64,000 nucleotides of DNA from Candidatus Omnitrophota bacterium (GTDB taxonomy: Bacteria > Omnitrophota > Gorgyraeia > 2-02-FULL-51-18): positions 665,840 to 729,839 of the forward strand of contig JAJVIE010000003.1 of assembly GCA_022072175.1 (NCBI GenBank), read 5' to 3'. A program made the position numbers and the translations under genes. This document shows, in pieces, positions 4,620 to 56,161 of this stretch (position 1 is the stretch's first letter; each line of letters starts with the position of its first letter). The notes under the pieces were generated by a model, which did not search any database, had not been told where the DNA came from, and was given only the letters and a program-made list of their open reading frames with translations.

Positions 4620-5480
4620 TCAGCCGACGATGTCGAGGGCCATGTCCAGCGCGGGGGCTCCGTAGGTCAGACGGCCCACCGAGATCCTCTCCACACCGCA
4701 CTCCGCGTACGCGCGGACGTTCTCCAGGGAGATCCCGCCGGAGACCTCAAGTTCGATGCCGGGGGCGCTGCGAGCGCGCATCTGGACGGCTTCCCGGACG
4801 GTCGGCAGGTCCATGTTGTCCAGCAGGATGTACTGCACATCGGTCTTGAGGGCCTCGGCGAGCTCCTTGAGGTTCTTGACCTCGATGCCGATGACGGTCT
4901 TGCGCAGGGAGGCCTGCCGGACGCGCTGTACGATCTGAGGAATGGACTCGTTGCGCAGGATACGCAAGTGGTTGTCCTTGATGAGCACCTGGTCCATGAG
5001 ACCGAAGCGGTGATTGCGGCCGCCACCGATCTTGACCGCATACTTCTCGAGCGCGCGGAGGTTGGGGGTGGTCTTGCGCGTATCGAGGATGCGCGCGCCG
5101 GTCCCGGCGATCTTATCGACGTACTTGCGCGTGAGCGTGGCGATGCCGCTCAGGCGCTGCAGGAAGTTGAGCGCCGTGCGCTCGGCCACGAGGATGGAAG
5201 CGGCCGGCCCCTGGATGTAGGCGATCTCACGGCCCTTCTCGAGGAGGTCGCCGTCTGCGGACACGGGCAGGAAGCGGATGTTCTCGTCCACGTGGCGGAA
5301 GACCTTCTCGGCGACCTCGATCCCGCACAGCACGCCGCTCTCCCGCGCCTCGATCTCCGCCCGGATCAGCAGGGTCTTGGGGATGATCGCCGAGGTCGTG
5401 ATGTCCCGCAGGCCGACGTCCTCGCGCAGCGCGTACTTGATCGCCAGGTCCGCCGGATTGACCCGCGAGGGATCGCTCAT
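4620..5480 (-). CDS. nadC: nicotinate-nucleotide pyrophosphorylase (quinolinate phosphoribosyltransferase)
   Basis: 286 aa. QPRTase family profile throughout, e.g. the LLDNM..., GIE.EV and RISVG regions. Confidence 0.9.
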   Translation of the reverse strand: MSDPSRVNPADLAIKYALREDVGLRDITTSAIIPKTLLIRAEIEARESGVLCGIEVAEKVFRHVDENIRFLPVSADGDLLEKGREIAYIQGPAASILVAERTALNFLQRLSGIATLTRKYVDKIAGTGARILDTRKTTPNLRALEKYAVKIGGGRNHRFGLMDQVLIKDNHLRILRNESIPQIVQRVRQASLRKTVIGIEVKNLKELAEALKTDVQYILLDNMDLPTVREAVQMRARSAPGIELEVSGGISLENVRAYAECGVERISVGRLTYGAPALDMALDIVG

Positions 5481-8173
5481 TCGCCGAGACTGCGCAGGTT
5501 CTCGTGGAGCCGCTGACGGCGGCTTTCGAGCTCCACGGCCTTCTGCCGTTCCTTGTCGACGATCTCCTTGGGCGCCTTGCGCAAGAACTCCTCGTTCTTG
5601 AGCCGCCCTTCGAGGCCCCGGATCAGACGGTCCACGTCCGCCAGCGCGGCCTCGATCCGTTGGCGTTCGACCTGAACGTCGACGAGCCCGGTGAGCACCA
5701 CGTACGTCTCGACGCGGCCGACGTTGGCGACGGCCGACTCCTTGGGGCGCGCGAGCGTCTTGCCGATCTGCAGCGATGAGACCTTGGCCATCTGCACGAT
5801 GTACGTCGAATATTCACGAAGGATGCGGAGCTCCGTATCGCCGGCGACCTTGACGGCGACGGTCACGGATTCCTTCGGATTGATCTGCCAGGCCGAGCGC
5901 ACGTTGCGGATGGCCTGGATCTCGCCCAGGATGATGTCGACCTCGGTCTCGAGCTTGGGGTCGATGCGGCGCTTCTCGGGCTTGGGCCATTCGCTCACCA
6001 TGATGGACTCGCCCTTGTGGGGGATCTTCTGCCAGATCTCTTCGGTGATGAACGGCATGAACGGGTGCAGCAGTCTCAGCGTTCGCTCCAGCACGTAGTG
6101 CATCGTCCACTGCGTGGCGCGGTCCTTCATCGTGGGTTTGGCCAGCTCCAGGTACCAATCGCAATACTGGTGCCAGATGAAATCGTACAGCGTCGAGGCC
6201 GCTTCGTTGAAACGGTGCCGATCAAGGCTCTCCGCCAGGGAAGCGGCGGTCTGATTGACCCGGCTGATGATCCATCGGTTGATGGGGCCCAGCTGCGCGG
6301 GTGTCGGGACCGCGGATGGGCGCAGCTTGCGGGTGTCGAGGTTCATCAAGACGAGGCGCGAGGCGTTCCAGATCTTGTTGGCGAAGTTGCGGCCGACCTC
6401 GAACTTTTCCTTGGAGCAATAGACGTCTTGGCCCTCCGCGGTGATCGAGATGATGCCGTAGCGCAGGGCGTCGGCGCCGAACTCGTCGATGATCTCGATC
6501 GGATCGACGGCGTTACCGAGGCTCTTGGACATCTTGGCGCCGGTTTCGTCCCGAACGATGCCGTGGATATAGACCTGCTTGAACGGCTCGCGGCCCATGA
6601 ACTCGATGCCGGACATGATCATGCGCGCGACCCAGAAGAAGATGATCTCATAACCGGTCACCAGACAGGCCGTCGGATAGAAGAACTTGAGGTCCTTGTT
6701 CTTTTCGGGCCAGCCCAGCGTCGAGAACGGCCAAAGCCAGGACGAGAACCACGTATCCAGCACGTCCGGGTCCTGCTCGAGAACGCCGCCACAGTCCGGA
6801 CAGGCTTTGGGGTCCTTGCGGGCGACGATCATGCCGGGCTCGCGGTAGACGCGCCCCTGACCGGGACGGAACACGGTCTCCGCGGCGGTCTTCCCCTTGT
6901 CGCGGCAGGCGGCGCACGTCCACACGGGTATGCGGTGCCCCCACCAGATCTGACGGGACACGCACCAATCCTTGATGTTGTGCATCCAGTCGAGGTAGAC
7001 CTTGGTCCACCGTTTGGGCGCGAAGACCGTGCGCTCCTTCTCGACCGCCTCGATCGCGGGGGCCGCCAGCGGTTTCATGTGCACGAACCACTGTGAGGAG
7101 AAATACGGCTCGATGACCGTGGAGCACCGATAGCAGTGTCCGACCGAATGCTGGTGCTCCTTGATCTCCAGCAGGATGCGCCGGTCCTCGAGGTCCGCCA
7201 CGATGCGGCGGCGCGCTTCGAAGCGGTCCAGTCCGGCGTAGGGGCCGGCGTTCTCGTTGAGCGTGCCGTCGGGATTGAGGATGTTGATGAATTCCAGCTC
7301 GTGCTTACGGGCCAGCTCGAAGTCCACCGGATCGTGCGACGGCGTGATCTTGAGCGCGCCGGTGCCGAAGGAGGGGTCGATGGATTCATCGCTGATGATG
7401 CGAAGACGGCGGTTGATCAGCGGCAGCGTCGCGGTCCGGCCGGACAGATGGCGGTAACGCTCGTCCGTCGGATTGAAACCGACCGCCGTGTCGCCCAACA
7501 TGGTTTCCGGGCGCGTCGTGGCGATCGTCACGTGCCCGTCGGTGCCCTCGATGGCGTATTTGAGATGGTACAGGTGGCCGTTGATCTCCTTGTGCTGGAC
7601 CTCCTCATCGGACAGCGCGGTCTGGCAACGCGGGCACCAGTTGATGATGTACTTGCCGCGGTAGATCAGGCCCTTCTCGTACAATCGCACGAACACCTCG
7701 CGCACGGCTTCGGACAAACCCTCGTCCATCGTGAAGCGCGTACGGTCCCAGTCGCACGAGGCGCCCAGCCGGTGCAGCTGGCGAACGATCGTGTTGCCGT
7801 ACTTCTCGCGCCACTTCCAGACGCGCTCGAGGAACGCTTCCCGGCCCAGCTGCTGCCGGGTCAACCCTTCTTCGCGCAGGGAGCGCTCGACGACGTTCTG
7901 GGTGGCGATGCCCGCATGGTCCGTGCCCGGCATCCAGAGCGTGCGGTACCCGCTCATGCGCTTGTAGCGGATCAGGATGTCCTGCAGGGTATTGTTGAGC
8001 GCGTGCCCCATGTGCAGGATGCCCGTGACGTTGGGCGGCGGGATCACGATGGTGTACGGCTTGCCCTTGGGCGCGGCCTTGGCCTTGAAGTAACCCTTCT
8101 TCAGCCAGTGGGCATACCAGTGCTTCTCGACGGATTTGGGCTCGTAGACCTTGGAGAGCTCCGGAGAGGACAT
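5477..8173 (-). CDS. valS: valine--tRNA ligase
   Basis: PNVTGILHMGHALNNT (HIGH motif) and KMSKSLGN (KMSKS motif), with a C-terminal coiled coil. The track ORF extends to 8260. The start was re-assigned to the ATG at 8171-8173 ([20 protein letters not shown]), which overlaps the cimA stop as TGATG. Confidence 0.88.
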   Translation of the reverse strand: MSSPELSKVYEPKSVEKHWYAHWLKKGYFKAKAAPKGKPYTIVIPPPNVTGILHMGHALNNTLQDILIRYKRMSGYRTLWMPGTDHAGIATQNVVERSLREEGLTRQQLGREAFLERVWKWREKYGNTIVRQLHRLGASCDWDRTRFTMDEGLSEAVREVFVRLYEKGLIYRGKYIINWCPRCQTALSDEEVQHKEINGHLYHLKYAIEGTDGHVTIATTRPETMLGDTAVGFNPTDERYRHLSGRTATLPLINRRLRIISDESIDPSFGTGALKITPSHDPVDFELARKHELEFINILNPDGTLNENAGPYAGLDRFEARRRIVADLEDRRILLEIKEHQHSVGHCYRCSTVIEPYFSSQWFVHMKPLAAPAIEAVEKERTVFAPKRWTKVYLDWMHNIKDWCVSRQIWWGHRIPVWTCAACRDKGKTAAETVFRPGQGRVYREPGMIVARKDPKACPDCGGVLEQDPDVLDTWFSSWLWPFSTLGWPEKNKDLKFFYPTACLVTGYEIIFFWVARMIMSGIEFMGREPFKQVYIHGIVRDETGAKMSKSLGNAVDPIEIIDEFGADALRYGIISITAEGQDVYCSKEKFEVGRNFANKIWNASRLVLMNLDTRKLRPSAVPTPAQLGPINRWIISRVNQTAASLAESLDRHRFNEAASTLYDFIWHQYCDWYLELAKPTMKDRATQWTMHYVLERTLRLLHPFMPFITEEIWQKIPHKGESIMVSEWPKPEKRRIDPKLETEVDIILGEIQAIRNVRSAWQINPKESVTVAVKVAGDTELRILREYSTYIVQMAKVSSLQIGKTLARPKESAVANVGRVETYVVLTGLVDVQVERQRIEAALADVDRLIRGLEGRLKNEEFLRKAPKEIVDKERQKAVELESRRQRLHENLRSLGE

Positions 8174-9738
8174 CAGCGCGTCAGTCGGTATTCGATCGAG
8201 TCGACGAGCGCCTGCCAGCTGGCCTCGATGATGTTGCCGGACACGCCGACCGTCGTCCAAACCTCACGTCCGTCGGAGAACTCGATGAACACCCGGACCT
8301 TGGCCGCCGTTCCTTCCTTGGAATCGACGACACGGACCTTGTAGTCTTCCAGCTGAACGCGGCTGACGATCGGGTAGAACGGCTCGAGCGCTTCACGGAG
8401 GGCCTTGTCCAGCGCGTTGACGGGACCGTCGCCGGTGGCGACGCCCACCCCCTTCTTCTTGCCGACCTTGAGCACGACGATCGCCGTGGAGCTCGAGTCC
8501 TTGTCCCCGATGTTCTCGGCGGAAACTTCGACCTTCTCGAACTCGAAGTGCCTCTTGCGGCGGCCGGTGACCTCTCGGATCAGCAATTCGAAGCTCGCCT
8601 CTGCGGCCTCGTACTGGTAACCCTGGTTCTCCCGCTCCTGCACCGCCTGCAGGATACGCCGGGCTTCCGGGGACTCCTTGTCGAACTTGATGGACAGCTC
8701 CTGGGCCTTGAGCATCACATTGGTCTTGCCTCCCAGCTCGGAGACGAGGAAGCGGCGGCGGTTACCGACCTTGGACGGCGTCACGTGCTCATAGGTCTCG
8801 GGCCGCTTCATGACGGCGTTGATGTGCACTCCGCCCTTGTGCGCGAAAGCGCTCTGTCCCGTGTAGGGCTGGTTCTTGGCCGAGGGCAGATTGCAGACCT
8901 CGTAGACGTAACGCGAGAGGTCCGTCATCTCCTTCAGCTTGCCCGCGGGCAGGCAACGGCGCTCCATCTTGAGCTCAAGGTTCGCGATGATCGGCACGAG
9001 GTCCGCGTTGCCGCATCTCTCTCCGAGACCGTTGACGGTGCCCTGCACGTGCGTCGCCCCGCCCTCGACCGCGGCCAGCGAGTTGGCCACGGCCAGCGCG
9101 GAATCGTTGTGGGCGTGGATGCCCAGCGGACAGCGCAGCTGCCGGGCGACCTCCTGCGTGATCCGCCGGACTTCCGTGGGCAAGCTTCCGCCGTTGGTGT
9201 CGCACAGCACGATCGTACGAGCGCCCGCCTCGTAGGCGGTGCCGATGGCCTTGAGCGCATATCCGGGATTGGCCTTGTATCCGTCGAAAAAATGCTCGGC
9301 GTCGAAGATCACCCGGCGCCCCTTGGAGCGCAGGTAGCGGACCGAGTCCTCGATCATGCGGATGTTCTCGTCGAGCTCGATACGGAAAACCTCCCGCACA
9401 TGCATGTCCCAGCTCTTGCCGAAGATCGTGATCGAGCCCGTACGCGCGGCGACCAGACCCTTGAGGACCATGTCCTCGGCGGCCTTGGTATGGGCGCGGC
9501 GCGTGGAACCGAAGGCGACGAGCTCCGCGGTCTTGAGACGAAGCTTGCGGGCCTGCTCGAAGAAAGCGATGTCCTTGGGATTGGCCCCGGGCCATCCGCC
9601 CTCGATGAACGCGAAGCCCTTCTCATCGAGCTTGCGCGTGATGAGCAGCTTGTCCTGCACGGAAAAGGAGATACCCTCTCCCTGCGAACCGTCGCGGAGC
9701 GTGGTGTCGTAGATCTCGACGTGCTTATCGGCGCGCAT
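8173..9738 (-). CDS. cimA: (R)-citramalate synthase, LeuA-related long form (isoleucine biosynthesis via citramalate)
   Basis: 521 aa. [20 protein letters not shown] and [38 protein letters not shown] are typical of the citramalate-synthase branch (about 520 aa) of the 2-isopropylmalate/homocitrate synthase family. Assignment to CimA rather than LeuA is by family resemblance only. Confidence 0.7.
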
Positions 9739-10957
9739 GCGACCTCTTGGTCAGGTTGAAACCCGCATGCAGAGCGCGGACCGACCGCTCGCCGTCGGCG
9801 CGAGCGACCACGCAGGAGATCTTGATCTCGCTGGTGGAGATCATCTCGATGTTGATGCCTTTCTTGGCCAGGATCTCGAACATCGTCGCGGCCACGCCGG
9901 CATGACTGCGCATGCCGATGCCGACGACCGACACCTTGGCGATGTTGGTGTCCTTGGAAACGTCCGTGAAACCGATCGACTTGCGCGCTCCGCGGAGACT
10001 GCGCACGGCGGCATCGGCCTCACCCGCCGGAACGGTGAACGAGATATCCGTCGCGGCCGATCGGCCGATGTTCTGGATGATGACGTCGACGTTGATCCCG
10101 TCGTCCGCCAGGCGGCGGAAGAGCCGGGCGGCCACGCCGGGCTTGTTGGGGACCCTGCGCACGGTCAGCTTGGCCTCGTTCTTGTTGATCGATACTCCGC
10201 GGATCAGCACATCCTCCATCGAGCGGTCCTCCTTGACGATCCAGGTCCCTTCATTGTCCGAAAAACTGCTGCGCACGTGGATCGGGATATCGTATTTCCC
10301 GGCCACCTCGATCGAGCGCGACTGCATGACCTGGGCTCCGGCCGAGGCCATCTCGAGCATCTCCTCATAACTGATCCGTTCGAGCTTGATCGCCGTCGGC
10401 TCGATGCGCGGATCGGTCGTATAGATCCCTTCCACGTCGGTGTAGATCTCGCATGTATCGGCGCTCAGGGCCTTGGCGAGCGCTACAGCGGTCAGGTCGC
10501 TGCCGCCCCGGCCCAGCGTGGTGATGTTCCTCTGCGCGTCCATGCCCTGGAACCCCGCCACGATCACCACTCGCTTGCGGCGCAGTTCCTCCCGGACCCT
10601 CCGGCCGTCGATCTCCACGATCCGCGCCCGCATGTGCGACGCGTCGGTGAGGATGCCCACCTGCGGGCCTGTCAGGGACACCGCGTCACAGCCCAGCTCG
10701 TGCAGGGCCATGGCCAGCAGCGCGATGGAGATCTGTTCGCCCGTCGACAACAGCATGTCCATTTCCCTCTTGGACGGGCAATCCGTGATCTTGCCGGCCA
10801 GTTCGATAAGGTCGTCCGTCGTGTCGCCAAGGGCGCTGACGACGACGACCACGGAGTGGCCTTGTTTGCGGTAGCGAGCCACGCGCCGGGCGACGTTCTT
10901 GATCCGTTCGGGATCGGCGACGCTCGAACCCCCGTATTTCTGTACGATCAAAGCCAA
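9725..10957 (-). CDS. lysC: aspartate kinase (ACT-domain containing)
   Basis: The track ORF runs to 11212. The conserved start (L)ALIVQKYGGSSV is a TTG at 10955-10957, preceded by SD GGAGG at 10963-10967. KYGGSS plus C-terminal ACT repeats. Confidence 0.85.
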   Translation of the reverse strand: MALIVQKYGGSSVADPERIKNVARRVARYRKQGHSVVVVVSALGDTTDDLIELAGKITDCPSKREMDMLLSTGEQISIALLAMALHELGCDAVSLTGPQVGILTDASHMRARIVEIDGRRVREELRRKRVVIVAGFQGMDAQRNITTLGRGGSDLTAVALAKALSADTCEIYTDVEGIYTTDPRIEPTAIKLERISYEEMLEMASAGAQVMQSRSIEVAGKYDIPIHVRSSFSDNEGTWIVKEDRSMEDVLIRGVSINKNEAKLTVRRVPNKPGVAARLFRRLADDGINVDVIIQNIGRSAATDISFTVPAGEADAAVRSLRGARKSIGFTDVSKDTNIAKVSVVGIGMRSHAGVAATMFEILAKKGINIEMISTSEIKISCVVARADGERSVRALHAGFNLTKRSHARR

Positions 10958-10967
10958 GACAACCTCC

Positions 10968-12101
10968 TCAATCCGACCGGCGGTCCGCGTTCCCCGCCCA
11001 GATCCCATGACCGTCCGCGACCGGACGTCCCGGCGCGGTCGCGGCCGCCAACGCATCAGCGGCCGAAACGCTCGACGATCCTCCGCACCTGCCGTCGAGG
11101 TACATCCAGCGGTCCGGCGCCAAGGCCCTGCGCCGGCCCGTGGTCTCGAGCGTGCATGCGGCAAGGGCTCGCGAGCCGTCCGAACCTTCGGCCAGCGATC
11201 CTGTGACCGCATCCCACTCTTCGATGCGGCGGATACGCTCCTTGAGGTCCCCGGCGGGACCCTCGAAGACCGTCATCGCGAACAAAAGATCGTACCCCTC
11301 ATGCTTGCCGTCGAGGGTCTCCGCCCAATCGGCGCCCAAGGCCTTGGCCAATCCACGATGGACAGGACCTCCGCCGATGAAGAGCGGTTTCGAAGAACCC
11401 TTCGACCGAAGCGACGGCAGATCGGCCGACCGGCCCTGAGCCCAGATCCACACCCCATTGCACGGGTTCTCGCCCAGATCGATACGGACCCGGTTGATCT
11501 CGTGCGACTCGAGCCCCTCAGCGGCCGCCGAACGCACTTTTTCGATCAGCGCCGCGGCCGCCGAACGACCCGCGACCGACGGGTACACCTGCCCGATCGA
11601 ACGCCCGGGCTCCGGAAGCTCCAAACCGACAAGCTCATCCGAAAGAAGGACATCGTCGACGACCAGGAACGCACGGCCGCCTTCGGCGGGGTAAAGTTTT
11701 ACTTTATCATCCTCGACACGGGCTTTCAACATCCCGAACAGGGCCTGTGCCTCGCCCTCCTGCAGGTCGCCCGGACTCGCCGAGACCAGACTCCCGGCCT
11801 CGAGCGTCACCAGGTCCATACGGAAGACCACTTGGTGCGGCCTCAGGACCGCGCCGCATCCCATGGCCTCGAACGGCGCCACACCCCCGGCCAGGCTGGC
11901 GGGATCGTACCCCGCGATGGACAAAGCCAAGCGGAGCGGGTCGCGTCGACCCGCGACGACGAAGCGCGCCTGACCCGCGGAGGCCGAGCCGGCCAAGCGG
12001 TTCAGATGCGGGGTTCGTGCCAGGTCCATCGCCGTACGGTTGTCGTAGCCGGGCTCGGGGCCGTCTTCCAGCCCCCACGCGGCCGAGATCAGGGCGGTCA
12101 T
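10968..12101 (-). CDS. cofactor-independent phosphoglycerate-mutase-like protein (archaeal ApgM family), the proposed non-orthologous homoserine kinase
   Basis: About 377 aa from the internal ATG ([17 protein letters not shown]...) that overlaps the thrC stop as ATGA. IAGYDP, PFEAMG and RMDLVTL resemble ApgM/metalloenzyme-superfamily motifs. It is wedged between thrC and lysC, where thrB would be expected. Confidence 0.6.
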
Positions 12102-13183
12102 ACGCCGAGCGCTTTGAGGATCGCTTCGGTGCGGGCGGGATACGCCTTGGGGACGCGTACGGTCTTGAGGGCCCGGTCGGGATCCTTGAGACCGTGCCCG
12201 GTAACGATGCACACGGCGATCCGCTGCGCGCCGGACCGGGCCGTAGCGCGATGCTTACGGAAGTAACCCTGCGCGGCGGCTTTGAGGAGCCCGGCCACCG
12301 ATGCGGCGCTGGCCGGCTCGACAAAAACCCCTTCCCGCGTGGCCAGGAGCTCGTAGGCGGCGAGGATCTCCTTGTCCGTCACCGGATCGATACGGCCACC
12401 GGAAGCGTCGCGCGCCGCGACGGCCTGCTCCCAGCTGGCCGGATTGCCGATACGGATGGCGGTGGCGATGGTCTTGGGTGCGGCGACAGGCTTGCCCTGT
12501 ACGATAGGTGCGGCGCCAGCGGCCTGGTACCCCAGGAGGACCGGCAACGACTTGATGACCTTGTCCCGGTGGTACTCCTGATAACCCTTCCAATAAGCGG
12601 TGATGTTGCCCGCGTTCCCAACGGGGATCACATGGTAATCAGGAGCCGCGCCGAGTTGATCGCAGATCTCAAAGGCCCCGGTCTTCTGCCCCTCGATCCG
12701 GAACGGGTTGACCGAGTTGACCAGGGTGATCGGATATTTGTCCGAGATCTCGCGCACCAGCCGCAGGGCGTGATCGAAGTTGCCCTTGACGGCGATGACG
12801 ACCGCGCCATGGATGAGCGCCTGACTGAGCTTGCCCAACGCGATGGCTCCCTCGGGTATCAGAACGGCGCAGCGGATACCCGCTCGGGCCGCGTAGGCGG
12901 CGGCCGACGCGGAGGTGTTGCCGGTGGAGGCGCAGATGACCATCCGACTGCCCGCCTCCTTGGCCTTGGAGACCGCGACGGTCATCCCCCGGTCCTTGAA
13001 CGATCCGGTCGGATTGAGGCCCTCGCATTTCAAGAAGACCCTCAGCCCGGTCCTGCGGCTCAGTTCGTCGGCGGGCACCAGCGGCGTGTTGCCTTCGCAC
13101 AGCGACACGACGGGGGTCTTGGCCGTGACCGGCAGGCGGTCACGATAGCGATGGATCAGGCCTTGCCAGCGCTCTGCGGGCAT
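12098..13183 (-). CDS. thrC: threonine synthase
   Basis: PLP fold-type II. The start was re-assigned to [43 protein letters not shown] carries the PLP lysine. The track ORF (to 13501) has a 106-aa upstream read-through. Confidence 0.85.
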
Positions 13184-13185
13184 GC

Positions 13186-14499
13186 TCAGCCGTCCACGCG
13201 CAACACGACGGTGCGTTGACGCACATCGGGGCGCCTGTCGATCTGCCGCAGCGCCGCGCGAAGGTCGGCCTCGCGGGCGGTGTACGTCAGGATGATGACG
13301 GGTACGGAGCGTCCGCCGTGCGTGCCCTTCTGCTGAACGCTCAGGATGGAGATATCGTGCTGTCCGAGAGTGCGGGCGATGTTGCCGAGCACACCGGGAC
13401 GGTCCGCGACCTGGAACCGGAGATAATACCTCGAAGCGATCCGATCGGCGGGCAGAACAGGAAGCTTGGGCAGGTCCTCCGGAGCGGGCTCCATCGTCCA
13501 ACTTTGAGCGGCGACGGCCTTGGCGATGGCGATGATATCGCTCATGACCGCGCTGGCCGTCGGGAGCATCCCCGCTCCCTTACCGTAGAAGAGCAGGTCC
13601 CCCGTGTGGTCCCCGTGCATAAAAACAGCGTTGTACACCCCGTGCACGTTCGACAGCGGATGGTCCTTGGGCAGCAGCGTCGGATGCACGCGCAGGTCCA
13701 GACCCTTGCCGTCGCGCTTGCCGATGGCCAACAGCTTGATCGCGTAGCCGAGCTCCGAGGCGTACTGCATATCGACGGCCGACAGCGAGCGGATGCCCTC
13801 GACGGGAATGCGGTCGAAGGGCACTTCCGAACGGAAAGCCAAGCGCGCCAGCACCGCGAGTTTGTGCGCCGAATCGATGCCATCGATATCCAGGGACGGG
13901 TCCTGCTCGGCGTAGCCCATGCTCTGGGCATCGGCCAACGCGTCCGTGAAATCCGAGTTCTGCCGGCTCATGGCGCTGAGGATATAGTTGCACGTCCCGT
14001 TCACGATGCCCATGAAGTGCGAGATGTTGTTGGACGTCAACCCTTCCCGCAGGGACCGGATGATGGGGATGCCCCCGCAGACGCTGGCTTCGATACCCAA
14101 CAGCCTGCGGTGCTTGGCGGCCTCACCGTAGATGGCCGTGGCGGCCTCGGCCAGCAGAGCTTTGTTGGCGGTGACCACATGCTTGCCGTGACGGAACGCC
14201 TCAAGGATCAGATCACGGGCCGGCGCGATACCACCGATCAGCTCGACGACGATGTCGATCGACGGGTCACGCAGGATGGCGTGGGGGTCCGTGGTCAACA
14301 ATCGCGCCGGCAGACGGACCGCCCGTTTCTTGCGGGGGTTGCGGACGCATACGGCCTTGAGCTCGAGCCGGATACCCGTCTTGGCCTGGATCGCGGCGAT
14401 CTCGGACTGTAGGATCCGCACCACACCGGTACCCACGGTGCCGCACCCGATGAGCGCGATCCCCACGGTCCTTCCGGTCGTAACGTTGACGGACCTCAT
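13186..14499 (-). CDS. hom: homoserine dehydrogenase (NAD-binding, catalytic and C-terminal ACT domains)
   Basis: [16 protein letters not shown] Rossmann motif and a homoserine dehydrogenase catalytic region. Start is at MRSVNVTTG (ATG 14497-14499). The upstream part of the track ORF is a translated tRNA gene. Confidence 0.85.
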
Positions 14500-14516
14500 T
14501 TGCCGACCCATAAAAA

Positions 14517-14595
14517 TGGTCGGGGCGAGTGGATTCGAACCACCGATCTCTTGCACCCCAAGCAAGCGCTCTGGACCAAGCTGAGCCACGCCCCG
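14517..14595 (-). tRNA. tRNA-Pro (anticodon GGG), CCA encoded
   Basis: The reverse complement folds as a cloverleaf. Acceptor stem CGGGGCG/CGCCCCG. D-arm GCTCAGCTTGGTCCAGAGC. Anticodon stem-loop CTTGC-TTGGGGT-GCAAG. T-arm GGTGGTTCGAATCCACT. 3' end ACCA. Confidence 0.85.
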
Positions 14596-23643: not shown

Positions 23644-24659
23644 GAGGCCTGAGCCGCCCAGCGTGCCGCGGATTCGGAGGCGCCTCTTGGACAAACGAGC
23701 ATGCCTTGGTGTGTTCGTACCACGATCGTGTCCTTCAGACCGGACAGACGCGCGCGGCCCGGCAGGGCATCGTGAACAAGGCAGTTCTCGCAATCCTTGA
23801 GCACCGCCCCGCCGATGACCGCGTTGCCCGCGGCATCCTTCGGAGCTTTTTCGTAGTACATGTCCCAACTGCCCATATCGCACCAGTCCATCCGGGTCGA
23901 CAGTACCGTCACGCGGCGCGTTCTCTCCATGAGCGCGTAGTCGATGGAGAGCGCCGGCAATCTCCGATAGGCGGCCCTCAAACGCGCGACGCCCTTGAGG
24001 CGCGTGAACTGCGGAGCGTGCCGCTCCATTTCACCATAGTAGGTGGAGAGCCGCCACGTGAAGATGCCGGCGTTCCATGCGTGCCGGCCGCCTTTGAGAT
24101 AGGCCGCCGCGCGCCGGGAGTCCGGTTTTTCGACGAAACGCCTGACGGTGTGGGCTCCGGCCGTACCGCGGATCGCCTGCCCGCGCTCGATGTAACCATA
24201 GCCGGTGGCGGCGAACGTCGGCCGGATGCCGATCGTGACCAGCGTCCTCGACGATCCGGCCAGACGGATGGCCGCGCGCATCGTGCCGGCGAACGACGCC
24301 GTGTCCTGGATCAGGTGGTCGGCCGGGTAGAAGGAGACGACCTCCTCGCCGCCGCACCTCTGACGCAGGATCTCGCAGGTCAGATGGATCGCCGAGGCCG
24401 TATTGTTGCGGAACGGCTCGATATGCAGATTGCCGGAGCTCAGGGACGTCAGCTCGGCGCGCACATGACGGACATGATCGCGTCCGGTGATGACATGCAC
24501 GCGGGCGGCCCCGTAAACTCGGGCCAGACGGGCGTACGTGGACGACAGCAGGGACGATCGACCGTCGTACCGGATGCGGTATTTGGGGAAATCCGCGGAT
24601 GTCAGCGGCCAGAATCGTTCTCCGATACCGCCGGCCATGATCACTGCCTGGGGCATCAA
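23640..24659 (-). CDS. mannose-1-phosphate guanylyltransferase (nucleotidyltransferase domain, no cupin)
   Basis: 339 aa. AVIMAGGIGERFWPLT sugar-nucleotidyltransferase signature. Confidence 0.7.
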   Translation of the reverse strand: MMPQAVIMAGGIGERFWPLTSADFPKYRIRYDGRSSLLSSTYARLARVYGAARVHVITGRDHVRHVRAELTSLSSGNLHIEPFRNNTASAIHLTCEILRQRCGGEEVVSFYPADHLIQDTASFAGTMRAAIRLAGSSRTLVTIGIRPTFAATGYGYIERGQAIRGTAGAHTVRRFVEKPDSRRAAAYLKGGRHAWNAGIFTWRLSTYYGEMERHAPQFTRLKGVARLRAAYRRLPALSIDYALMERTRRVTVLSTRMDWCDMGSWDMYYEKAPKDAAGNAVIGGAVLKDCENCLVHDALPGRARLSGLKDTIVVRTHQGMLVCPRGASESAARWAAQAS

Positions 24660-25477
24660 TCGCCCCCGGCTTTGACGGACCGGACGGCCCGGACGAACGG
24701 CCGCACCACCCGCCGGGCGAACGCGGAAGCGTCGGACAGGCCGGTCCTGGACAGCTCTCGGACGATCGCGCTGCCGACGATCACACCATCGCTGTACGCG
24801 CAGAAGCGGCGCGCCGCCTCGGGTGTCGAGACACCGAAACCCACGCAGACCGGAAGCTCGCTTCCCCTGCGCGCGCGGCGCACATGCGACTCGATGACGC
24901 GCGAACTGTCCTTGGCGTCCGCTCCGGTGACGCCGGTCAAGGAAACGTAATAGACAAAACCTTTGGAGCGTCTGAGCACCAGGCGTTCACGCTCGCCGGA
25001 GCTGGTCGGGGCCAGCAGGTAGACGGTATGCAGTCCGCGCCGGGCCAGCACACGGTCGATCTCCCCGCCCTCATCTGGAGGCACGTCCGGCAGGATCACC
25101 CCATCGACACCCGCACGGGCAGCGTCAGCGGCGAATCGCCGGATACCGTAACGGAGGATGGGGTTGGCGTAGCTCATGAGCAGGATGGGCAGGCGCACGC
25201 CGCTCCGTCGCGCCTGGCCGACCATGTCCAGCACACGCCGCACGGTCACGCCGTTCTTGAGGGCCGTCAGCGAGGAGGCCTGGATGACGGGCCCGTCCGC
25301 CAGAGGGTCGGAGAACGGCACCCCGATCTCCAGCAGATCCACACCCTCACGCTCGAGCGCGACCGCCAGGCGGACGGTGCTCGTGAGCGTCGGATGTCCC
25401 GCGGTGATGAAGGCGATCATGGCTTTCTGCCGCCGCTCACGCAGCGCGGCGAACGTCCGGTCGATGCGGTTGGTCAT
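24656..25477 (-). CDS. trpA: tryptophan synthase alpha chain
   Basis: 273 aa. TrpA family. [18 protein letters not shown]. Confidence 0.9.
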
Positions 25478-26682
25478 AAGGCCAGCACCTTGGAGACCTG
25501 CTCGACGTCCTTGTCGCCGCGTCCGGACAGGCAGATCAGGAGCGTATCCGTCCTGCGGAAGCGGCGCTTGTTCTTGAGCAGATAGCCGATCGCGTGCGCC
25601 GGCTCGAGCGCCGGAATGATCCCTTCGAGTCGGCTCAGGGCCTGGAGCCCTTCGAGCGCTTCTTTGTCCGTGGCCGAGACGTACTCCGCCCGACCCCTGC
25701 TCTTGAGATAAGCGTGTTCGGGACCGACACCCGGATAATCCAAGCCCGCCGAGATGGAGTGGGCCAACTGGATCTGGCCGTCAGCGTCCTGGAGCACTTC
25801 GGTCCGGCTGCCGTGAAGCACGCCGATCCGGCCGGCGGTGAGCGTCGCCGCGTGCTGGCCCGAGGAGACGCCGTGCCCGGCCGCCTCGACGCCGATCAGG
25901 CGCGCGCGGCTGGCGAGGAACGGATGGAACAGCCCCATGCTGTTGGAGCCGCCCCCCACGCACGCCACCGCGTAGTCAGGGTCCCGCCCGACGGCAACCC
26001 GGAACTGCCTGCGCGCCTCCTGACCGATCACGGCCTGGAAATCCCTGACCAGCCGCGGGTACGGATGAGGCCCGATGACGGAGCCGATGATGTAGTGCGT
26101 GTCGCGCACGTTGGTGACCCAATCCCGGATGGCCTCGTTGACGGCGTCCTTGAGCGTCCGCGAACCCGAGCGGACCGGGTTGACCTTGGCGCCCAGGAGT
26201 TTCATACGAAAGACGTTGAGGGACTGGCGGTGGACATCCTCCTCCCCCATATAGACCTCACAGCGGATCCCCAGAAGCGCGCACACCGTCGCGGTGGCCA
26301 CGCCGTGCTGCCCGGCCCCCGTCTCCGCGATGACGCGTTTTTTGCCCATCCGAAGCGTCAGTAGGGATTGACCGATGGTGTTGTTGATCTTGTGCGAGCC
26401 GGTATGATTGAGGTCCTCGCGCTTCAGGAAAGCACGGCGAACCCCGAGCGCCTTGGCCAGACGCTTGACCTCGGTCAACGCCGTCGGCCGGCCGGCATAA
26501 TGGTGGAGCCGCTGCATGAACTCCCTGCGGAAAGACGGGTCCCTGGAGGCCTTGGCGTACTCGCGCTCCAGCTCGGCGAGCGCGCCCATGAGCGTCTCGG
26601 GCACATAACGGCCGCCGTAGGGGCCGAAATGCCCGTGGCGGTCGGGTTGACTATGGAAGCGTTCGGTAGGCTTTTTGGGCAT
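25474..26682 (-). CDS. trpB: tryptophan synthase beta chain
   Basis: 402 aa. [14 protein letters not shown] and HTGSHKINN (PLP lysine). Confidence 0.92.
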
Positions 26683-27283
26683 TGGTGATGAACCTTTTCA
26701 TCGCGACAGGGTCCTTGATGCCGGGGGCGGTTTCGACCCGGCTGGAAGCCTCGACGCCGTACGGACGCAGCCGGCGGACCGCCTCGGCGACGTTGCCGGC
26801 ATGCAGTCCTCCCGCCAGGATCACCGGCGTCGTTCGCGGCACACCACGGAGCAGGCTCAGATCGAACGTCCGGCCCGTCCCGCCGTCGGACCCGCGAACC
26901 TCGGTATCGAACAGCCATGCCCCGGCCCGGTGGCGCCTCAGGGCGGCGACCGCGAACCCCGGTCCGACACGAAAGGCCTTGATCGTCAGAAGGTTTCCGA
27001 GGATCCGCTCGTATCCGGGTCGCTCCGACCCGTGCAGTTGGACGGCCGTCAGACCCGCTTCATCAGCGATAGCCCGGATCTCGCGTGCCGGCGTATCGAC
27101 AAAAACCCCCACGAGCGCGGGCCACGGACCCACCGCCCGCCGGATGCGTCGGGCCTGCGCCGGCGTAACGCGGCGCTTGCTGCCGGCGGCGAAGACCAGC
27201 CCGACCGCCGTCGCGCCACAGCGGAACGCCAGCTCAGCGTCCTGCTGACGGGTCACACCGCAGATCTTCACGTAACCGCTCAT
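26651..27283 (-). CDS. trpF: phosphoribosylanthranilate isomerase
   Basis: 210 aa. VKICGVT TIM-barrel N-terminus of the TrpF family. Confidence 0.85.
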
Positions 27284-28068
27284 GTGCGCCCCAGGAGTTT
27301 GGCGACGCCCGCGCCGGGATCGGCTTCCCGCATGAACGCTTCGCCCACGAGAACGGCCTTGGCTCCGAGAGCTTTCAAGTATAACAAATCACCATGGGAC
27401 TGTATGCCACTTTCGGAGACCAGCAACCGCTTGTCGTCGACGAGCGGCGCCAATCTCTCCGTCGTGCGAAGGTCCACCGAGAACGTCTGCAGGTCGCGGT
27501 TGTTCACTCCGATGATCCTCGCTCCGACAGCCAGGGCTTTCTGCACATCCTCGTAGCTGTGGGTCTCCACCAGGGCGTCCAGACCGTAGCGTCCGGCCAG
27601 TTCGTACAGCGTCTTGAGCTCTTCGGCCGAGAGCGCCCCGGCGATCAGGAGCAGGGCGTCGGCGCCCATCGCCACCGTCTCGTACACTTGCACTTCGTGG
27701 ATGATGAAATCCTTGCGCAGCACCGGCAGAGCGACCTCGGCCTTGACCGAGCGCAGATAGTCGGCGCTGCCGCCGAAGTAGATCACGTCCGTGAGCACCG
27801 ACAGCGCCGCGGCCCCGCCCTTTTCGAAGGATCGGGCCAGGGAGACCGGGTCGAAATCCGCCCTCAGGAGCCCCTTGGACGGCGAGCGGCGTTTGATCTC
27901 TGCGATGACGGCCATCGGTTCGGGCGCTTCGCGGAGAGCCCGCTCGAAGACGCCCGCGTTCGCGTGGCGGAGCCGCTCGGCCTCGGAACGCCAGGCCGCC
28001 AGGGGCTTGGCCGCCAGCGTCTCCTGGACCTCCTTGCGTTTCTCCATCAGGATCTCCCGGAGGATCAC
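27280..28068 (-). CDS. trpC: indole-3-glycerol phosphate synthase
   Basis: 262 aa. IAEIKRRSPSKG and the IGPS family profile. Confidence 0.88.
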   Translation of the reverse strand: MILREILMEKRKEVQETLAAKPLAAWRSEAERLRHANAGVFERALREAPEPMAVIAEIKRRSPSKGLLRADFDPVSLARSFEKGGAAALSVLTDVIYFGGSADYLRSVKAEVALPVLRKDFIIHEVQVYETVAMGADALLLIAGALSAEELKTLYELAGRYGLDALVETHSYEDVQKALAVGARIIGVNNRDLQTFSVDLRTTERLAPLVDDKRLLVSESGIQSHGDLLYLKALGAKAVLVGEAFMREADPGAGVAKLLGRT

Positions 28069-29081
28069 GCGGCGCTCCCGTAGTAGTCACGCACCTGCTG
28101 GAGCTTGTTCAGGCCGCCCCCGTTCCGCTGGACCGCCACGATCCGCCGGTAACCCTCGGCGATGGACGGCGCCAGACCCGCGGCGCGCAGGCCCGCGCCG
28201 GCGTTCAGGCAGACGATGTCCGAGGCGGGACCCGAAGCGCCCCCGAGGATGTCGAGAGCCAGACGCGAGGCATCCTCGGCATCGGCCACCCTGAGCACAT
28301 CGAGCGGCACCCGACGGATGCCGACATCTTCGGGCTCCAGACGTCCCTCTCGGATCTGCCCGCCCGACAATTCGGCATAGACGCTGGGGGCGGAGATGCT
28401 GATCTCGTCCAGGCCATCCTCGCCGTGCACGATGAGCGCGGAGACACAGCCGAGCTCCTTGAGCGCTTCGGCGAACGCCCGGACCAGCGGACGGGAATAC
28501 ACGCCCAGGAGGTGATGTCCCGCTCCGGTGGGATTGGACAGCGGTCCGATCAGGTTGAAGACCGTCTTGCCGCCGACCCGCTTGCGTGCGGCCATGGCGT
28601 GTTTGACGGCGGGGTGGTACAGCGGCGCGAACAGGAACCCCCAACCGACCTCGGCGATACCCCTTTCGATCTTCTGGGCGCCGGCGTCCATCGGCACACC
28701 CAGGGCCTCCAGAAGATCCGCGCTGCCGCAGACCCCCGACACCGAACGGTTGCCGTGCTTGGCGACGCGGGCGCCGGCGGCCGCGCACAGGAACGATGCG
28801 ATCGTCGAGACGTTGAGCGTCCGGGAGGCATCGCCTCCGGTACCGCACGTATCGAGCCATTCCGGATGATCGGAGGCGGTCCGGACGCCGTGCTCGCGCA
28901 GCACCCTCGCGGCCGCGACGATCTCTCCGACCGACTCTCCTTTCTGACGCAACAGCACCAGCAGGTCGGCGATGTCGGACTCCTGGGCCTGACCGCTCAT
29001 GATGGCGCGCATGGCGTCGGTCATCTCGGAGGAAGCCAGATCACGTCCGGCGCGGAGGAGTTCGACGGCGGGCAGGGTCAC
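28065..29081 (-). CDS. trpD: anthranilate phosphoribosyltransferase
   Basis: 338 aa. DTCGTGGD and HGNRS motifs. Confidence 0.9.
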   Translation of the reverse strand: MTLPAVELLRAGRDLASSEMTDAMRAIMSGQAQESDIADLLVLLRQKGESVGEIVAAARVLREHGVRTASDHPEWLDTCGTGGDASRTLNVSTIASFLCAAAGARVAKHGNRSVSGVCGSADLLEALGVPMDAGAQKIERGIAEVGWGFLFAPLYHPAVKHAMAARKRVGGKTVFNLIGPLSNPTGAGHHLLGVYSRPLVRAFAEALKELGCVSALIVHGEDGLDEISISAPSVYAELSGGQIREGRLEPEDVGIRRVPLDVLRVADAEDASRLALDILGGASGPASDIVCLNAGAGLRAAGLAPSIAEGYRRIVAVQRNGGGLNKLQQVRDYYGSAA

Positions 29082-29647
29082 CGGGTGAGCTCGAGAAAAT
29101 TACGGAGGATGCGTTTCCCGCATCCGGTAAGGATGGACTCGGGATGGAACTGCACTCCGTAGACCGGGTACCGGCGGTGCCGAAGCCCCATGATCTCCCC
29201 CCGGTCGGTCCAGGCGGTCACCGCCAGGTCCTTGGGCAACGAACGGCGTTCGACCAGCAGTGAATGGTAGCGCGTCGCCGTGAACGGCTGATCAAGACCC
29301 TTGAAGATCCCCTTGCCGTCATGATGGATCTCGGATGTCTTGCCGTGCATCAACCGGTCCGCGCGCACGACCCGGCCGCCGTAGACCTGCCCGATGCACT
29401 GGTGCCCGAGGCAGACGCCCAGCACGGGGATGCGCGGCCCGAGCTCACGGATGATGTCGTTGGAGATCCCGGCCTCGTCCGGATTTCCGGGACCCGGAGA
29501 GATGACGATCCGGGCGGGCTTGAGCTTGCGGACACCCGCGAGATCGACGCGGTCGTTACGGACCACCTTGAGGGTCTGCCCCATCTCACCCAGGTACTGC
29601 ACGAGGTTGTAGGTGAACGAATCGTAATTGTCGATCATCAGGATCAT
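29078..29647 (-). CDS. trpG: anthranilate synthase component II (glutamine amidotransferase)
   Basis: MILMIDNYDSFTYNLVQYL and GVCLGHQ (catalytic Cys). Start placed at the ATG overlapping the trpE stop (ATGA). The 198-aa Arg/Gly-rich read-through in the track ORF was rejected. Confidence 0.88.
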   Translation of the reverse strand: MILMIDNYDSFTYNLVQYLGEMGQTLKVVRNDRVDLAGVRKLKPARIVISPGPGNPDEAGISNDIIRELGPRIPVLGVCLGHQCIGQVYGGRVVRADRLMHGKTSEIHHDGKGIFKGLDQPFTATRYHSLLVERRSLPKDLAVTAWTDRGEIMGLRHRRYPVYGVQFHPESILTGCGKRILRNFLELTR

Positions 29648-31146
29648 CGGGCCATCCCTCCTGCCGCGGCCTCGATCGCCCTGAAAAGAGCCTTGGCCTT
29701 GTTGACGGTCTCCTCGTACTCCTTCGCGGGGTCCGAGTCCGCCACGATACCGGCTCCGGCCTGAGCCGTCGCGCGGCCGCCGCTCATCACGATGGTGCGG
29801 ATCGCGATGCAGGTGTCCATGTCCCCGGTATGGGAGAAGTAGCCCACGACACCGGAGTACAGGCCTCTCCTGCGATTCTCGAGACGATCGATGATCTCCA
29901 TGGCCCTGACCTTGGGCGCTCCCGAGATCGTGCCCGCGGGGAACGTCGCGCGCAAAAGGTCGTAGCCGTTGCGGCCCCTCGCCAGGCGACCCTCGACGTT
30001 GCTGACCAGGTGCATGACGTGCGAGTAACGCTCGACGGTGGAGAACTCCGTGACCTTGACGCTGCCGTACCCGCACACGCGGCCCAGGTCGTTGCGGCCG
30101 AGGTCGACCAACATCAGGTGCTCGGCGCGTTCCTTGGGGTCGGCCAGGAGCTCTCTTTCGAGCGCCTTGTCCTCGGAAGCGTCGCGGCCGCGGCGGCGCG
30201 TGCCGGCGATGGGCCTGAGCGAAGCGACCCCGGCGGTGCATTTGACGTGCACCTCAGGCGAGGATCCGGCGACCTTGAGCGGTCCGAAGTTGAGATAGAA
30301 CATGTACGGAGAGGGGTTGATGGAGCGCAGTGCCCGGTAGACCTCGAACGGCTCCGCCTTGAGCGGGGTGCTGAAAGCCTGCGAGAGCACCACCTGGAAA
30401 ATATCGCCCTTGCGGATATGCTCCTGGGCCTCGAGCACGGCCTTGCGGAATCCCGCTCGGGTAAAGTTCGAATCGATGCGGAGCTTGCCCGTCGGCCGCT
30501 CGATGGGCACGGGCAGGTTGCGAAGCTTGGCGGAGCGGAACAACCGAGAGGCGGCCGCATCGATGCGCCGGGCGGCCTCGCGGTAGGCGGCCGAGCCGGA
30601 ACGCCCGCGCCGGACGCGGGCCGAGCTGATGATGCGGATGCGCCGTTCGGTATGGTCGAAGACCACGATGATACGCGGCGCGACGAACACCATGTCCGGG
30701 AGGCCGGTCTTGTCGGGATTCTTGTCGGGGATCCGCTCGAAGAAGCGCACCGTGTCATAGCCCATGTAGCCGACGAAGCCCCCGGCGAAGGGCGGCATTC
30801 CCTGCAGCGGGGCTTGTCTGTACGAACGCTGGAGCGTCTGGAGTTCCCTCAGCGGATCCGTCCGGGTCTGCCAGACACGCGAACGTCCGCGCTCATCGGA
30901 GACCGTGATCTGGCGGCCTTTACTGGTGAAGACGGCGGAGGCGCCGATGCCCAGGATCGAGTAACGAGCCAGGGACTCCCCTCCCTCCACGGACTCCAAG
31001 AGCAGTGAGTAGGGCTCATCGCCGACCTTGAGGAAGCACGATACGGGCGTCTCGAGGTCCGCCAGATACTCGCGATACACGGGTATCGTGTCGTATCTCC
31101 GCGCCAGCCGCGCGAACGTCCGCGGGTCCGGGTGGTATCCCCGCAT
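29644..31146 (-). CDS. trpE: anthranilate synthase component I
   Basis: 500 aa. Chorismate-binding enzyme family. It starts 3 nt after the hisI stop, with no leader region. Confidence 0.9.
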   Translation of the reverse strand: MRGYHPDPRTFARLARRYDTIPVYREYLADLETPVSCFLKVGDEPYSLLLESVEGGESLARYSILGIGASAVFTSKGRQITVSDERGRSRVWQTRTDPLRELQTLQRSYRQAPLQGMPPFAGGFVGYMGYDTVRFFERIPDKNPDKTGLPDMVFVAPRIIVVFDHTERRIRIISSARVRRGRSGSAAYREAARRIDAAASRLFRSAKLRNLPVPIERPTGKLRIDSNFTRAGFRKAVLEAQEHIRKGDIFQVVLSQAFSTPLKAEPFEVYRALRSINPSPYMFYLNFGPLKVAGSSPEVHVKCTAGVASLRPIAGTRRRGRDASEDKALERELLADPKERAEHLMLVDLGRNDLGRVCGYGSVKVTEFSTVERYSHVMHLVSNVEGRLARGRNGYDLLRATFPAGTISGAPKVRAMEIIDRLENRRRGLYSGVVGYFSHTGDMDTCIAIRTIVMSGGRATAQAGAGIVADSDPAKEYEETVNKAKALFRAIEAAAGGMAR

Positions 31147-31149
31147 GGA

Positions 31150-31545
31150 TCAGTAGACTTTCTTGGGATCGAACACGAGCGGGTCCGTCACTTCGCGCGA
31201 AGCATCGTCCTTGATGCGTTCGAAGTAACAGCTGAAATAACCCTTGTGGCATCCGGCGACGTTCTGGTCGATCACGAACAGCAACGACTTGCCCTCGCAG
31301 TCCGGCCTGAACTCCCGCACCGCCTGCGTGTGTCCGGAGGTCTCGCCTTTTTTCATCAGCTTGTTCTGCGAGCGGCGGAACAGGTGGATGTACCCCGTCT
31401 CGAGCGTCGCTCGGAGCGAGATCTCGTTCATGTAGCAGAGCGTCAGCACCTGCTTGGTCTTGCGGTCCTGGATGATGGAGGGGATGAGCCCCTGAGCGTC
31501 GAACTTGAGCGAGCTTTTGATCTGTTCGAAGATGGCGTCGTTCAT
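31150..31545 (-). CDS. hisI: phosphoribosyl-AMP cyclohydrolase (HisI domain only)
   Basis: 131 aa. HisI family profile, with no fused HisE domain. Confidence 0.85.
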
Positions 31546-32300
31546 GACCTGACCGTGATCCCTTTCTGCTTCAGATAGCGTTTGACCTGCCCGACCGTGA
31601 ACTGACGATAATGAAAGATGCTGGCCGCCAGCACCGCGTCGGCCTTGCCGCGGGTCAGTCCGGCCGCCAGATGCGAGAGCTCACCGGCCCCTCCGGAGGC
31701 GATGACCGGCACGCGTACGGCCGAGGACACCCTGCGGAGCAGCTCAAGATCATAGCCGTTCTTGGTGCCATCGCGGTCCATGCTCGTCAGCAGGATCTCC
31801 CCCGCCCCGAGCTTCTCGCAGCGCCTGGCCCACCGGACCGCGTCCAGACCGGTCGCCGTGCGTCCCCCGTGCGTGAAGACCTCCCACCTGCGGGACCCCG
31901 TGCGCTTGGCATCGATGGCGACCACCACGCACTGGGCTCCGAACCTCCTCGAGGCCTTGCGGATGAGCTCGGGATCCTTGACGCCGGCGGTGTTGATGGA
32001 GACCTTGTCGGCCCCGGCCGCCAGGAGCGTGCGGATGTCCTCGATGGAAGAGACACCGCCGCCGACCGTCAGGGGGATGAACACCTGCTCGGCCGTACGG
32101 CGCACGACATCAAGGATGATCTTGCGCTTCTCATGCGAAGCGGTGATGTCCAGGAACACCAGCTCGTCCGCTCCGGCCCGATCATAAAAAAGCGCGCACT
32201 GCACCGGATCTCCCGCATCGCGCAGACCCACGAAGTTGGTCCCCTTGACCACTCGCCCGTCCTTCACATCTAAACAGGGGATCACGCGCTTGGCAAGCAT
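31542..32300 (-). CDS. hisF: imidazole glycerol phosphate synthase, cyclase subunit
   Basis: 252 aa. [20 protein letters not shown]. Confidence 0.92.
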
Positions 32301-33013
32301 GTTCTCACCGCGTCCGCGACGCTGAACTTCTTCTCGTACAAGGCTTTACCGATGATGGCGCCGAGCAGATTGGGCTTGCGCAGCGCTTCGAGCGCCCGGA
32401 GATCGTCCAGGCTCGAGACGCCTCCTGAGGCGATCACCCCGATGCCGCCGAGATCGAGCATCGTGCCGAGCTCCTTGAGGTTCGGCCCGGTCAGGGCTCC
32501 ATCCCGGTCGATGTCGGTGTAGATGATCGTCCGTCCTCCAAGGGACGACACGGACTCCGCCAGGCCCCTGGCCCGCAGTTCCGTGACCTTCCTCCAGCCG
32601 TCCGTGGCGACCTGACCGCGCACCGCGTCGATACCGATGATCGCGCGCTCACCGAACTCCCGCAAGGCCTCTTTCAGGAAACCGGGGTCCAGACAGGCTT
32701 GAGTGCCGAAGATCACCCAGCGCACTCCGGCTTCGAGCGCCCGGTGCGCGCTCCCGAGGTCCCTCAGACCTCCGCCGAGCTCCACGGGCACCTTGACCCG
32801 ACGCAGGATCGCCCTAACAGCGTCCATGTTGGCCTGAGCTCCGTCGCGCGCGCCGTCGAGGTCGACGACATGCAATCGCCGCGCGCCCTGTTCCTCGAAG
32901 ACGGCGGCCACATCGGCCGGGGCGTCCGCATAGACCGTTTCGCGGTCGAAATCGCCCTTGAACAACCGAACGGCCTTGCCTCCGCGCAGATCGATCGCCG
33001 GGATCGGGATCAT
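32282..33013 (-). CDS. hisA: ProFAR isomerase
   Basis: 243 aa. [17 protein letters not shown]. Confidence 0.9.
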
Positions 33014-39647: not shown

Positions 39648-39725
39648 GAGGTCCCACTGCCTCCGGTGTTATCTCTTTCGCTGTGAACAGGTTACGAGCT
39701 GGCGGCCTCTGCTCCAGAGGTATGC

Positions 39726-39754: not shown

Positions 39755-39815
39755 GCCTCCGCGCCATCCTATAAGTCGTCGTGGGGGCTCGATTTCGTTC
39801 ACTTCGGGACCGGGA

Positions 39816-39845: not shown

Positions 39846-39851
39846 GTCCGC

Positions 39852-53830: not shown

Positions 53831-53846
53831 CTCCACATGCCTCCGT

Positions 53847-56161
<2,315 letters not shown>

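Follow-up and report, generated by a model that had tools for sequence, protein, structure and literature searches.

A HomK-family protein stripped of catalytic residues in the threonine operon of an Omnitrophota lineage: a candidate pseudoenzyme

Introduction

Homoserine is phosphorylated by ThrB, the GHMP homoserine kinase, or by ThrH, a phosphoserine:homoserine phosphotransferase. Archaeal-type cofactor-independent phosphoglycerate mutases (iPGM; the ApgM family, TIGR00306) use a metal-activated serine that accepts the phosphate and passes it on. The same mechanism is assumed for HomK, the ApgM-like family described by TIGR02535 (ThrB2), of which BT2402 from Bacteroides thetaiotaomicron and DET_RS08350 from Dehalococcoides complement an E. 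coli thrB deletion (10.1101/2024.10.14.618325). Confirmation of HomK as the chief substitute for ThrB is very recent. Tools of the GapMind type fill a thrB gap by homology and gene neighbourhood, and the GapMind 2026 preprint demands the catalytic and specificity residues for membership of HomK (10.1101/2024.10.14.618325). By the same account, 8% of prototrophs still have no explanation for the thrB step, and homoserine phosphorylation is one of four steps behind most of the remaining gaps in amino-acid biosynthesis (10.1101/2024.10.14.618325).

The replacement of thrB by an ApgM-like gene is already published. What is new here is a monophyletic HomK lineage, maintained by selection and stripped of its catalytic residues, whose most extreme member is encoded in the DNA described below. 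The preprint makes no mention of Omnitrophota or of catalytically dead forms of HomK (10.1101/2024.10.14.618325), and full-text literature searches returned nothing further on catalytically dead HomK. We analysed a 64,000-nt stretch of an Omnitrophota genome (the window), in which a protein that we call X is encoded at the operon position where the step performed by ThrB or ThrH is expected. A first-pass annotation had proposed X as the missing homoserine kinase.

Results

X is encoded on the minus strand at 10968..12101 (377 codons; ATG at 12101..12099, TGA at 10970..10968), and the protein is identical to NCBI MOGMAGMI_01027, a “hypothetical protein” from a Candidatus Omnitrophica MAG. The gene order on this strand is hom, thrC, X, lysC, followed by cimA and valS, so that X adjoins hom and thrC on the same strand, the context used to recognise HomK. 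The neighbours had been named from the letters alone, and curated models bear these names out: hom (13186..14511, starting at ATG 14511 or ATG 14499) encodes a homoserine dehydrogenase with a C-terminal ACT domain (NF004976, 534 bits), thrC (12098..13183) a threonine synthase of 361 aa (TIGR00260, 321 bits; cutoff 167) and lysC (9725..10957, TTG start) a monofunctional aspartate kinase of 410 aa (NF005155, 598 bits). Downstream, cimA (8173..9738, minus strand; TIGR00977, 731 bits; cutoff 450) overlaps the end of lysC by 14 nt, and valS (5477..8173, minus strand), encoding valyl-tRNA synthetase, is the last conserved member of the array. As cimA encodes a citramalate synthase, isoleucine is probably made via the citramalate route and not from threonine.

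The thrC stop codon (12100..12098) overlaps the X start codon as ATGA (12098..12101), an arrangement of translational coupling that is also present at a related locus, L001. Between the X stop codon and the lysC start lies a 10-nt spacer (10958..10967, minus strand; GGAGGTTGTC), in which the Shine-Dalgarno sequence GGAGG (10967..10963) is followed by TTGTC and then by the TTG start codon at 10957. The ATGA junction, the spacer and the TTG start are therefore all as first read from the sequence. The wider claim that hom-thrC-X-lysC is overlap-coupled holds for thrC and X but not for hom and thrC, which lie 2 nt apart (TGA GC ATG) without overlap.

Directly upstream of hom, Rfam places a tRNA-Pro gene with anticodon GGG (14517..14595, minus strand). 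Because it ends 5 nt before ATG 14511, the earliest hom start codon, a longer hom ORF call (start 14589) runs through the tRNA. A second tRNA-Pro gene, with anticodon CGG, lies at 59449-59526 (minus strand); these two tRNAs were the only Rfam matches, with no riboswitch or leader among them. A scan for promoters and terminators between 4.5 and 16.5 kb gave counts no higher than those in shuffled sequence, and is thus uninformative on the operon boundaries.

X is a homologue of the ApgM family well beyond any chance similarity; the first-pass annotation had noted a resemblance to archaeal-type iPGM. The motifs it quoted, AAWGLEDGP (residues 7-15), IAGYDP (62-67), PFEAMG (76-81) and RMDLVTL (94-100), are all present in the 377-aa translation. 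The best NCBIfam match is TIGR00306 (136.5 bits, E = 1.2e-39), the sole Pfam match is PF10143 (E = 7e-19), and the best PDB sequence matches are 3kd8 (E = 2.8e-17), 3idd and 2zkt. Built on an alignment of 88 sequences, the AlphaFold model shows high confidence from end to end (pLDDT 92.6, pTM 0.89), and Foldseek returned the same three archaeal-type iPGM structures as its best matches (E ~1e-22, TM 0.63-0.71). The two-domain ApgM fold, comprising an alkaline-phosphatase-like core and a cap domain, is therefore kept in the model. ThrB and ThrH have no sequence or fold relationship to X, and Pfam detected no GHMP kinase domain (PF00288 or PF08544) in it.

Assignment to a functional family, proposed by comparing TIGR02535 with TIGR00306, fails on both models. 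X reaches 106.1 bits on TIGR02535 (cutoff 446.3; residues 12-258 aligned), 340 bits short, and its score on TIGR00306 is likewise far under the cutoff of 320, placing it in neither family. Only residues from about 10 to 262 align to curated models, and there is no match to PF01676 (Metalloenzyme), the Pfam domain that carries the metal site.

Close relatives of X are scarce. A collection of 5.8 billion proteins holds only three, at 60-67% identity, which with X make up four clusters (the X-group); one is encoded on a 10-kb contig with the order hom-thrC-X-lysC-cimA-valS. JGI metagenome contigs scanned with an X-group profile yielded no relative. A profile search of 1.84 billion representatives showed a gap down to 194 bits, below which stood proteins of 373-389 residues, also without the canonical N-terminal Asp and Ser. 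Using a profile of these proteins to scan one genome per species, we obtained 80 loci in Omnitrophota and Planctomycetota MAGs, and tblastn with the neighbouring proteins of the window placed hom, thrC, X and lysC in that order at 41 loci.

We scored the homologues at seven positions without variation among 42 canonical orthologs, Asp9, Ser56, Asp301, His305, Asp344, His345 and His354 (numbering of the L030 protein), together with the specificity residue Glu298. The DH motif (Asp344-His345) belongs with Asp9 to the first metal site; the D-x3-H motif (Asp301, His305) and the distal His (His354) we take to be the ligands of the second, from this invariance and from established knowledge of the iPGM/alkaline-phosphatase superfamily. 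The homologues divide as follows. Class A comprises 42 loci with all seven catalytic residues and the Glu; 38 of the 42, from more distant Omnitrophota species, adjoin thr or lys genes. All six class A proteins tested pass TIGR02535 (524-565 bits; cutoff 446), and class A is bona fide HomK in this slot. The suggestion that the place between thrC and lysC belongs to an ApgM-like homoserine phosphotransferase is thus correct, canonical HomK occupying the identical position in sister Omnitrophota lineages. Class B comprises 19 loci, all in the same slot, with none to two of the seven residues, no specificity Glu and no 17-residue loop; the four that were run against TIGR02535 reach 262-338 bits. 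The four X-group loci, also in this slot, retain none of the seven. Class C comprises 15 Planctomycetota loci with two to four of the seven residues and no threonine context.

Class B, exemplified by A3C47_04100 of Omnitrophica RIFCSPHIGHO2_02_FULL_51_18 and by P0154-P0202, appears in public records as “hypothetical” or “iPGM”. It shares with X the slot, the clade (below), a deletion of the loop and a change of Asn97 to Asp (N97D). The two differ in that identity is only 25-36%, and in that many class B proteins keep an Asp at position 344 alongside a Glu or Gln at position 9, and class B still matches PF01676. With 106 bits on TIGR02535 against 262-338 for class B, X is the most degenerate form.

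The class C genes (L028, L033, L039, L053, L059, L065, L068, L071, L073, L074, L078, L079, L080, L083, L084) do not adjoin hom or thrC; several immediately precede valS. In their partly altered site the N-terminal Asp is replaced by Thr, Ser, Ala or Pro and the D-x3-H Asp by Asn, and there is no distal His. Among the canonical proteins, those from L029, L030, L031, L023, L066 and L038 are operon-encoded, pass TIGR02535 and carry the HomK specificity Glu; they also score 547-580 bits on NF003242 (cutoff 426), the equivalog model for cofactor-independent phosphoglycerate mutase. Since true HomK proteins pass NF003242, automatic annotation will call HomK iPGM.

Every scored position is replaced in X. 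Asp9 corresponds to Trp9 in both the MAFFT and the hhalign alignments, and in the phmmer alignment to 3kd8, too, Trp9 falls on the metal Asp. Ser56 corresponds to Leu56 (MAFFT) or Arg53 (hhalign), and the surrounding RRDPLRLA segment has no Ser or Thr conserved among the four X-group proteins. In the second half of the site, Asp301 falls on a gap (hhalign) or a hydrophobic residue (MAFFT), His305 on Pro282, Asp344-His345 on Thr317-Leu318 (MAFFT) and His354 on Leu327 (MAFFT). The specificity residue Glu298, a Glu in all 42 canonical orthologs, is Val278 in both alignments. The hhalign comparison, an independent profile-profile alignment (probability 100%), gave the same equivalences up to residue 300, short of the region of DH and the distal His. 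X also lacks the 17-residue loop VPGATGYYDTNYxGK. The first-pass annotation had called the putative metal/phosphoserine region (AAWGLEDGP) divergent; this was right, and an understatement.

Set against the residues that define HomK, X has neither the catalytic Ser (S56 of BT2402) nor the first metal site (D9; D346/H347 of BT2402, equivalent to D344/H345 of L030), the second (D-x3-H, in HVEAPDEAGH, and the distal His, in THTxxPVP) or the specificity Glu (E299 of BT2402; Lys in PGMs). The numbers published for the second metal site of BT2402, D274, H278 and H325 (10.1101/2024.10.14.618325, Appendix 3), have no positional fit to D-x3-H or the distal His, and we therefore used the motifs invariant in the canonical orthologs instead; D9, S56, E299 and D346/H347 fit the alignments with an offset of 0-2.

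The losses extend beyond the catalytic set. Of 48 polar residues invariant in class A, 20 survive in X and 19 in class B; those lost include Arg75, His113 and the PPHD motif of the cap domain, all probably substrate-binding. Another cap-domain motif, N-R-V-R-x-D-L-x-E-N-P...W-x-W-G-x-G, is invariant in every class, as are a few other residues, among them Thr23, Glu118 (Glu117 in X) and Asp320. A search for a new active site common to the degenerate clade (class B and the X-group) found N97D as the only shared feature, and the lack of other new shared polar residues argues against a rebuilt site. Among the four X-group proteins themselves, the remodelled strand of the former active site is perfectly conserved.

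A neighbour-joining tree of concatenated LysC and CimA, covering 16 of the 19 class B loci and two of the four X-group loci, united all 18 taxa in one clade with no class A member inside, the X-group being sister to class B. This single clade, together with the loop deletion and N97D common to its members, shows that the catalytic apparatus was lost once, in their ancestor. The loss is old: LysC identities within the lineage now reach down to about 70%.

The gene has not decayed since. The ORF is intact in all 23 degenerate copies and tightly coupled to thrC, and dN/dS for X is 0.10 in the least saturated pair and 0.15-0.25 in the others, compared with 0.03-0.15 for neighbouring genes. X is thus under purifying selection, though its rate of evolution is two to three times that of its neighbours (61% identity between the window and L001, against 81-89% for the neighbours) and about twice that of canonical HomK: at 70-80% LysC identity, class A pairs are 59% identical, class B pairs 43% and the X-group 27% to class B. 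Such relaxed constraint fits the expectation after a loss of catalysis. X combines the marks of a pseudoenzyme, namely a kept fold, lost catalytic residues and purifying selection.

To account for threonine synthesis, another source of O-phosphohomoserine was sought. Pfam scans of all ORFs of at least 195 aa in the window revealed no GHMP, APH-type or ThrH-like/HAD-type gene, and a precomputed Pfam list revealed no GHMP, APH-type or ThrH-like gene in the ~10 kb beyond its right edge. When the window and 84 loci were translated in all six frames, a strict regular expression for the GHMP motif matched nothing, which is weak evidence. Together the search covered ~75 kb, or ~5% of a contig of at least 1.59 Mb.

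The genome appears to be that of a prototroph, judging by a gene set that includes trp, his, dap, arg, cimA and an intact, well-conserved thrC; O-phosphohomoserine must therefore be made somehow. The genes for amino-acid biosynthesis are densely packed: trpA, trpB, trpF, trpC, trpD, trpG and trpE, then hisF, hisA, hisH, hisB and hisD, occupy 24656-35488 (minus strand) of the window, and dapB, dapA, dapF, lysA, argH, argG, argF and argD lie beyond its right edge (L088).

Discussion

X is a positional ortholog and an evolutionary descendant of HomK. It shares with BT2402 and DET_RS08350 the superfamily, the two-domain fold, the slot by hom and thrC and the invariant cap-domain motif, and departs from them in lacking the catalytic Ser, both metal sites, the specificity Glu and the 17-residue loop, as well as in its score and rate of evolution. 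None of the parts of the phosphoserine mechanism is present in X, and the degenerate clade shares no substitute set of conserved polar residues; for these reasons we think that X no longer makes O-phosphohomoserine. The proposal that it is the missing homoserine kinase is not upheld, given the replacement of all seven catalytic and metal residues and of the specificity Glu, and scores of 106 bits (TIGR02535) and 136.5 bits (TIGR00306).

We favour, at a probability of roughly 60%, the reading that X is a pseudoenzyme descended from HomK, that it does not make O-phosphohomoserine by the HomK mechanism, that the kinase is encoded outside the window, and that X is kept for a non-catalytic job. The ancestral enzyme was an ApgM-like homoserine phosphotransferase of the kind that stands in for ThrB in many bacteria without thrB. 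One Omnitrophota lineage has since lost the enzyme's phosphoserine nucleophile, both of its metal sites, the Glu for homoserine specificity and the active-site loop. The gene has nonetheless persisted as an intact, translationally coupled ORF for a well-folded protein under purifying selection, while the O-phosphohomoserine step may be done by an enzyme encoded elsewhere in the genome. The absence of activity is deduced from sequence, and a role without catalysis seems probable on the same footing. Its most plausible form would be the binding of a small anionic ligand through the invariant cap motif, a partnership with neighbouring pathway enzymes, or both.

The main argument against the pseudoenzyme reading is that no other kinase was found in the ~75 kb. 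Retention in the kinase slot with coupling to thrC would also fit a step performed in another way, and the perfectly conserved strand at the former active site of the X-group could be a new functional site. X might still supply O-phosphohomoserine without phosphoserine or metal sites, by direct transfer in the cap domain or only when in a complex with a partner that supplies the missing residues. The kinase slot and the coupling have been kept across 23 species-level loci under purifying selection, in a prototroph-like context; every class conserves the cap motif NRVRxDLxENP...WxWGxG at 100%; and the thrB step lacks an explanation in 8% of prototrophs (10.1101/2024.10.14.618325). We nevertheless judge this unlikely, as all seven catalytic residues, the Glu, the loop and 28 of the 48 invariant polar residues are gone, among them the probable substrate-binding Arg75, His113 and PPHD motif, no replacement polar set is common to class B and the X-group, and evolution runs at twice the rate of canonical HomK. 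A related and similarly doubtful idea concerns the degenerate clade as a whole, which might represent a new operon-embedded type: either a phosphotransferase without phosphoserine or metal machinery, or an obligatory non-catalytic partner or sensor controlling threonine synthase or aspartate kinase, with the true kinase an undescribed enzyme.

The faster evolution of X relative to its neighbours and the rarity of the X-group, in four clusters among 5.8 billion proteins and in none of the JGI metagenome contigs, could suggest a functionless relic on its way to becoming a pseudogene. This is very unlikely, and we rejected a plain pseudogene on the grounds of the ORF being intact at all 23 degenerate loci, a dN/dS of 0.10 in the least saturated pair, a confident and fully folded model, and a clade spanning LysC identities down to about 70%, over which the gene has long been kept. 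Less probable again is that X is a working HomK of the TIGR02535 type that is merely divergent in sequence: its position between thrC and lysC and its ApgM membership agree with this, but 106 bits against a cutoff of 446, and the absence in two independent alignments of the catalytic Ser, both metal sites and the specificity Glu, residues which the preprint that defines HomK demands (10.1101/2024.10.14.618325), speak strongly against it. A glycolytic ApgM, to which the best NCBIfam match, the iPGM name given to relatives by JGI and the fold matches to 3idd and 2zkt might lead, has a negligible chance and was rejected, since X shares only ~20% identity with archaeal-type iPGM, falls short of TIGR00306 (136.5 bits against 320), has lost the Ser and the metal ligands, has neither Lys (PGM) nor Glu (HomK) at the specificity position, and sits among genes of threonine and lysine biosynthesis and not of glycolysis.

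The locus reveals a HomK look-alike, present throughout an Omnitrophota lineage in the right operon position, that would pass a context test and yet, in X, has none of the catalytic residues. If only context and family are considered, annotation will close the threonine pathway in error in genomes of the degenerate clade, and the homoserine-phosphorylation step is reopened in a seemingly prototrophic lineage. The progression from canonical HomK through class B to X offers a natural series for the change from enzyme to pseudoenzyme inside an operon.

Other features of the window

The only plus-strand gene among the annotated ORFs is cinA (39816-41111). An ORF of 465 aa at 39669-41066 (minus strand) is antisense to this well-supported gene and has no family match, and is therefore almost certainly a spurious GC-rich ORF. 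Without a Pfam or NCBIfam match are also the minus-strand ORFs at 58296-59510 (404 residues), 53309-53932 (207 residues) and 59538-60134 (198 residues). The last of these lies directly downstream of an ECF sigma factor gene (60177-60776) and may encode an anti-sigma factor.
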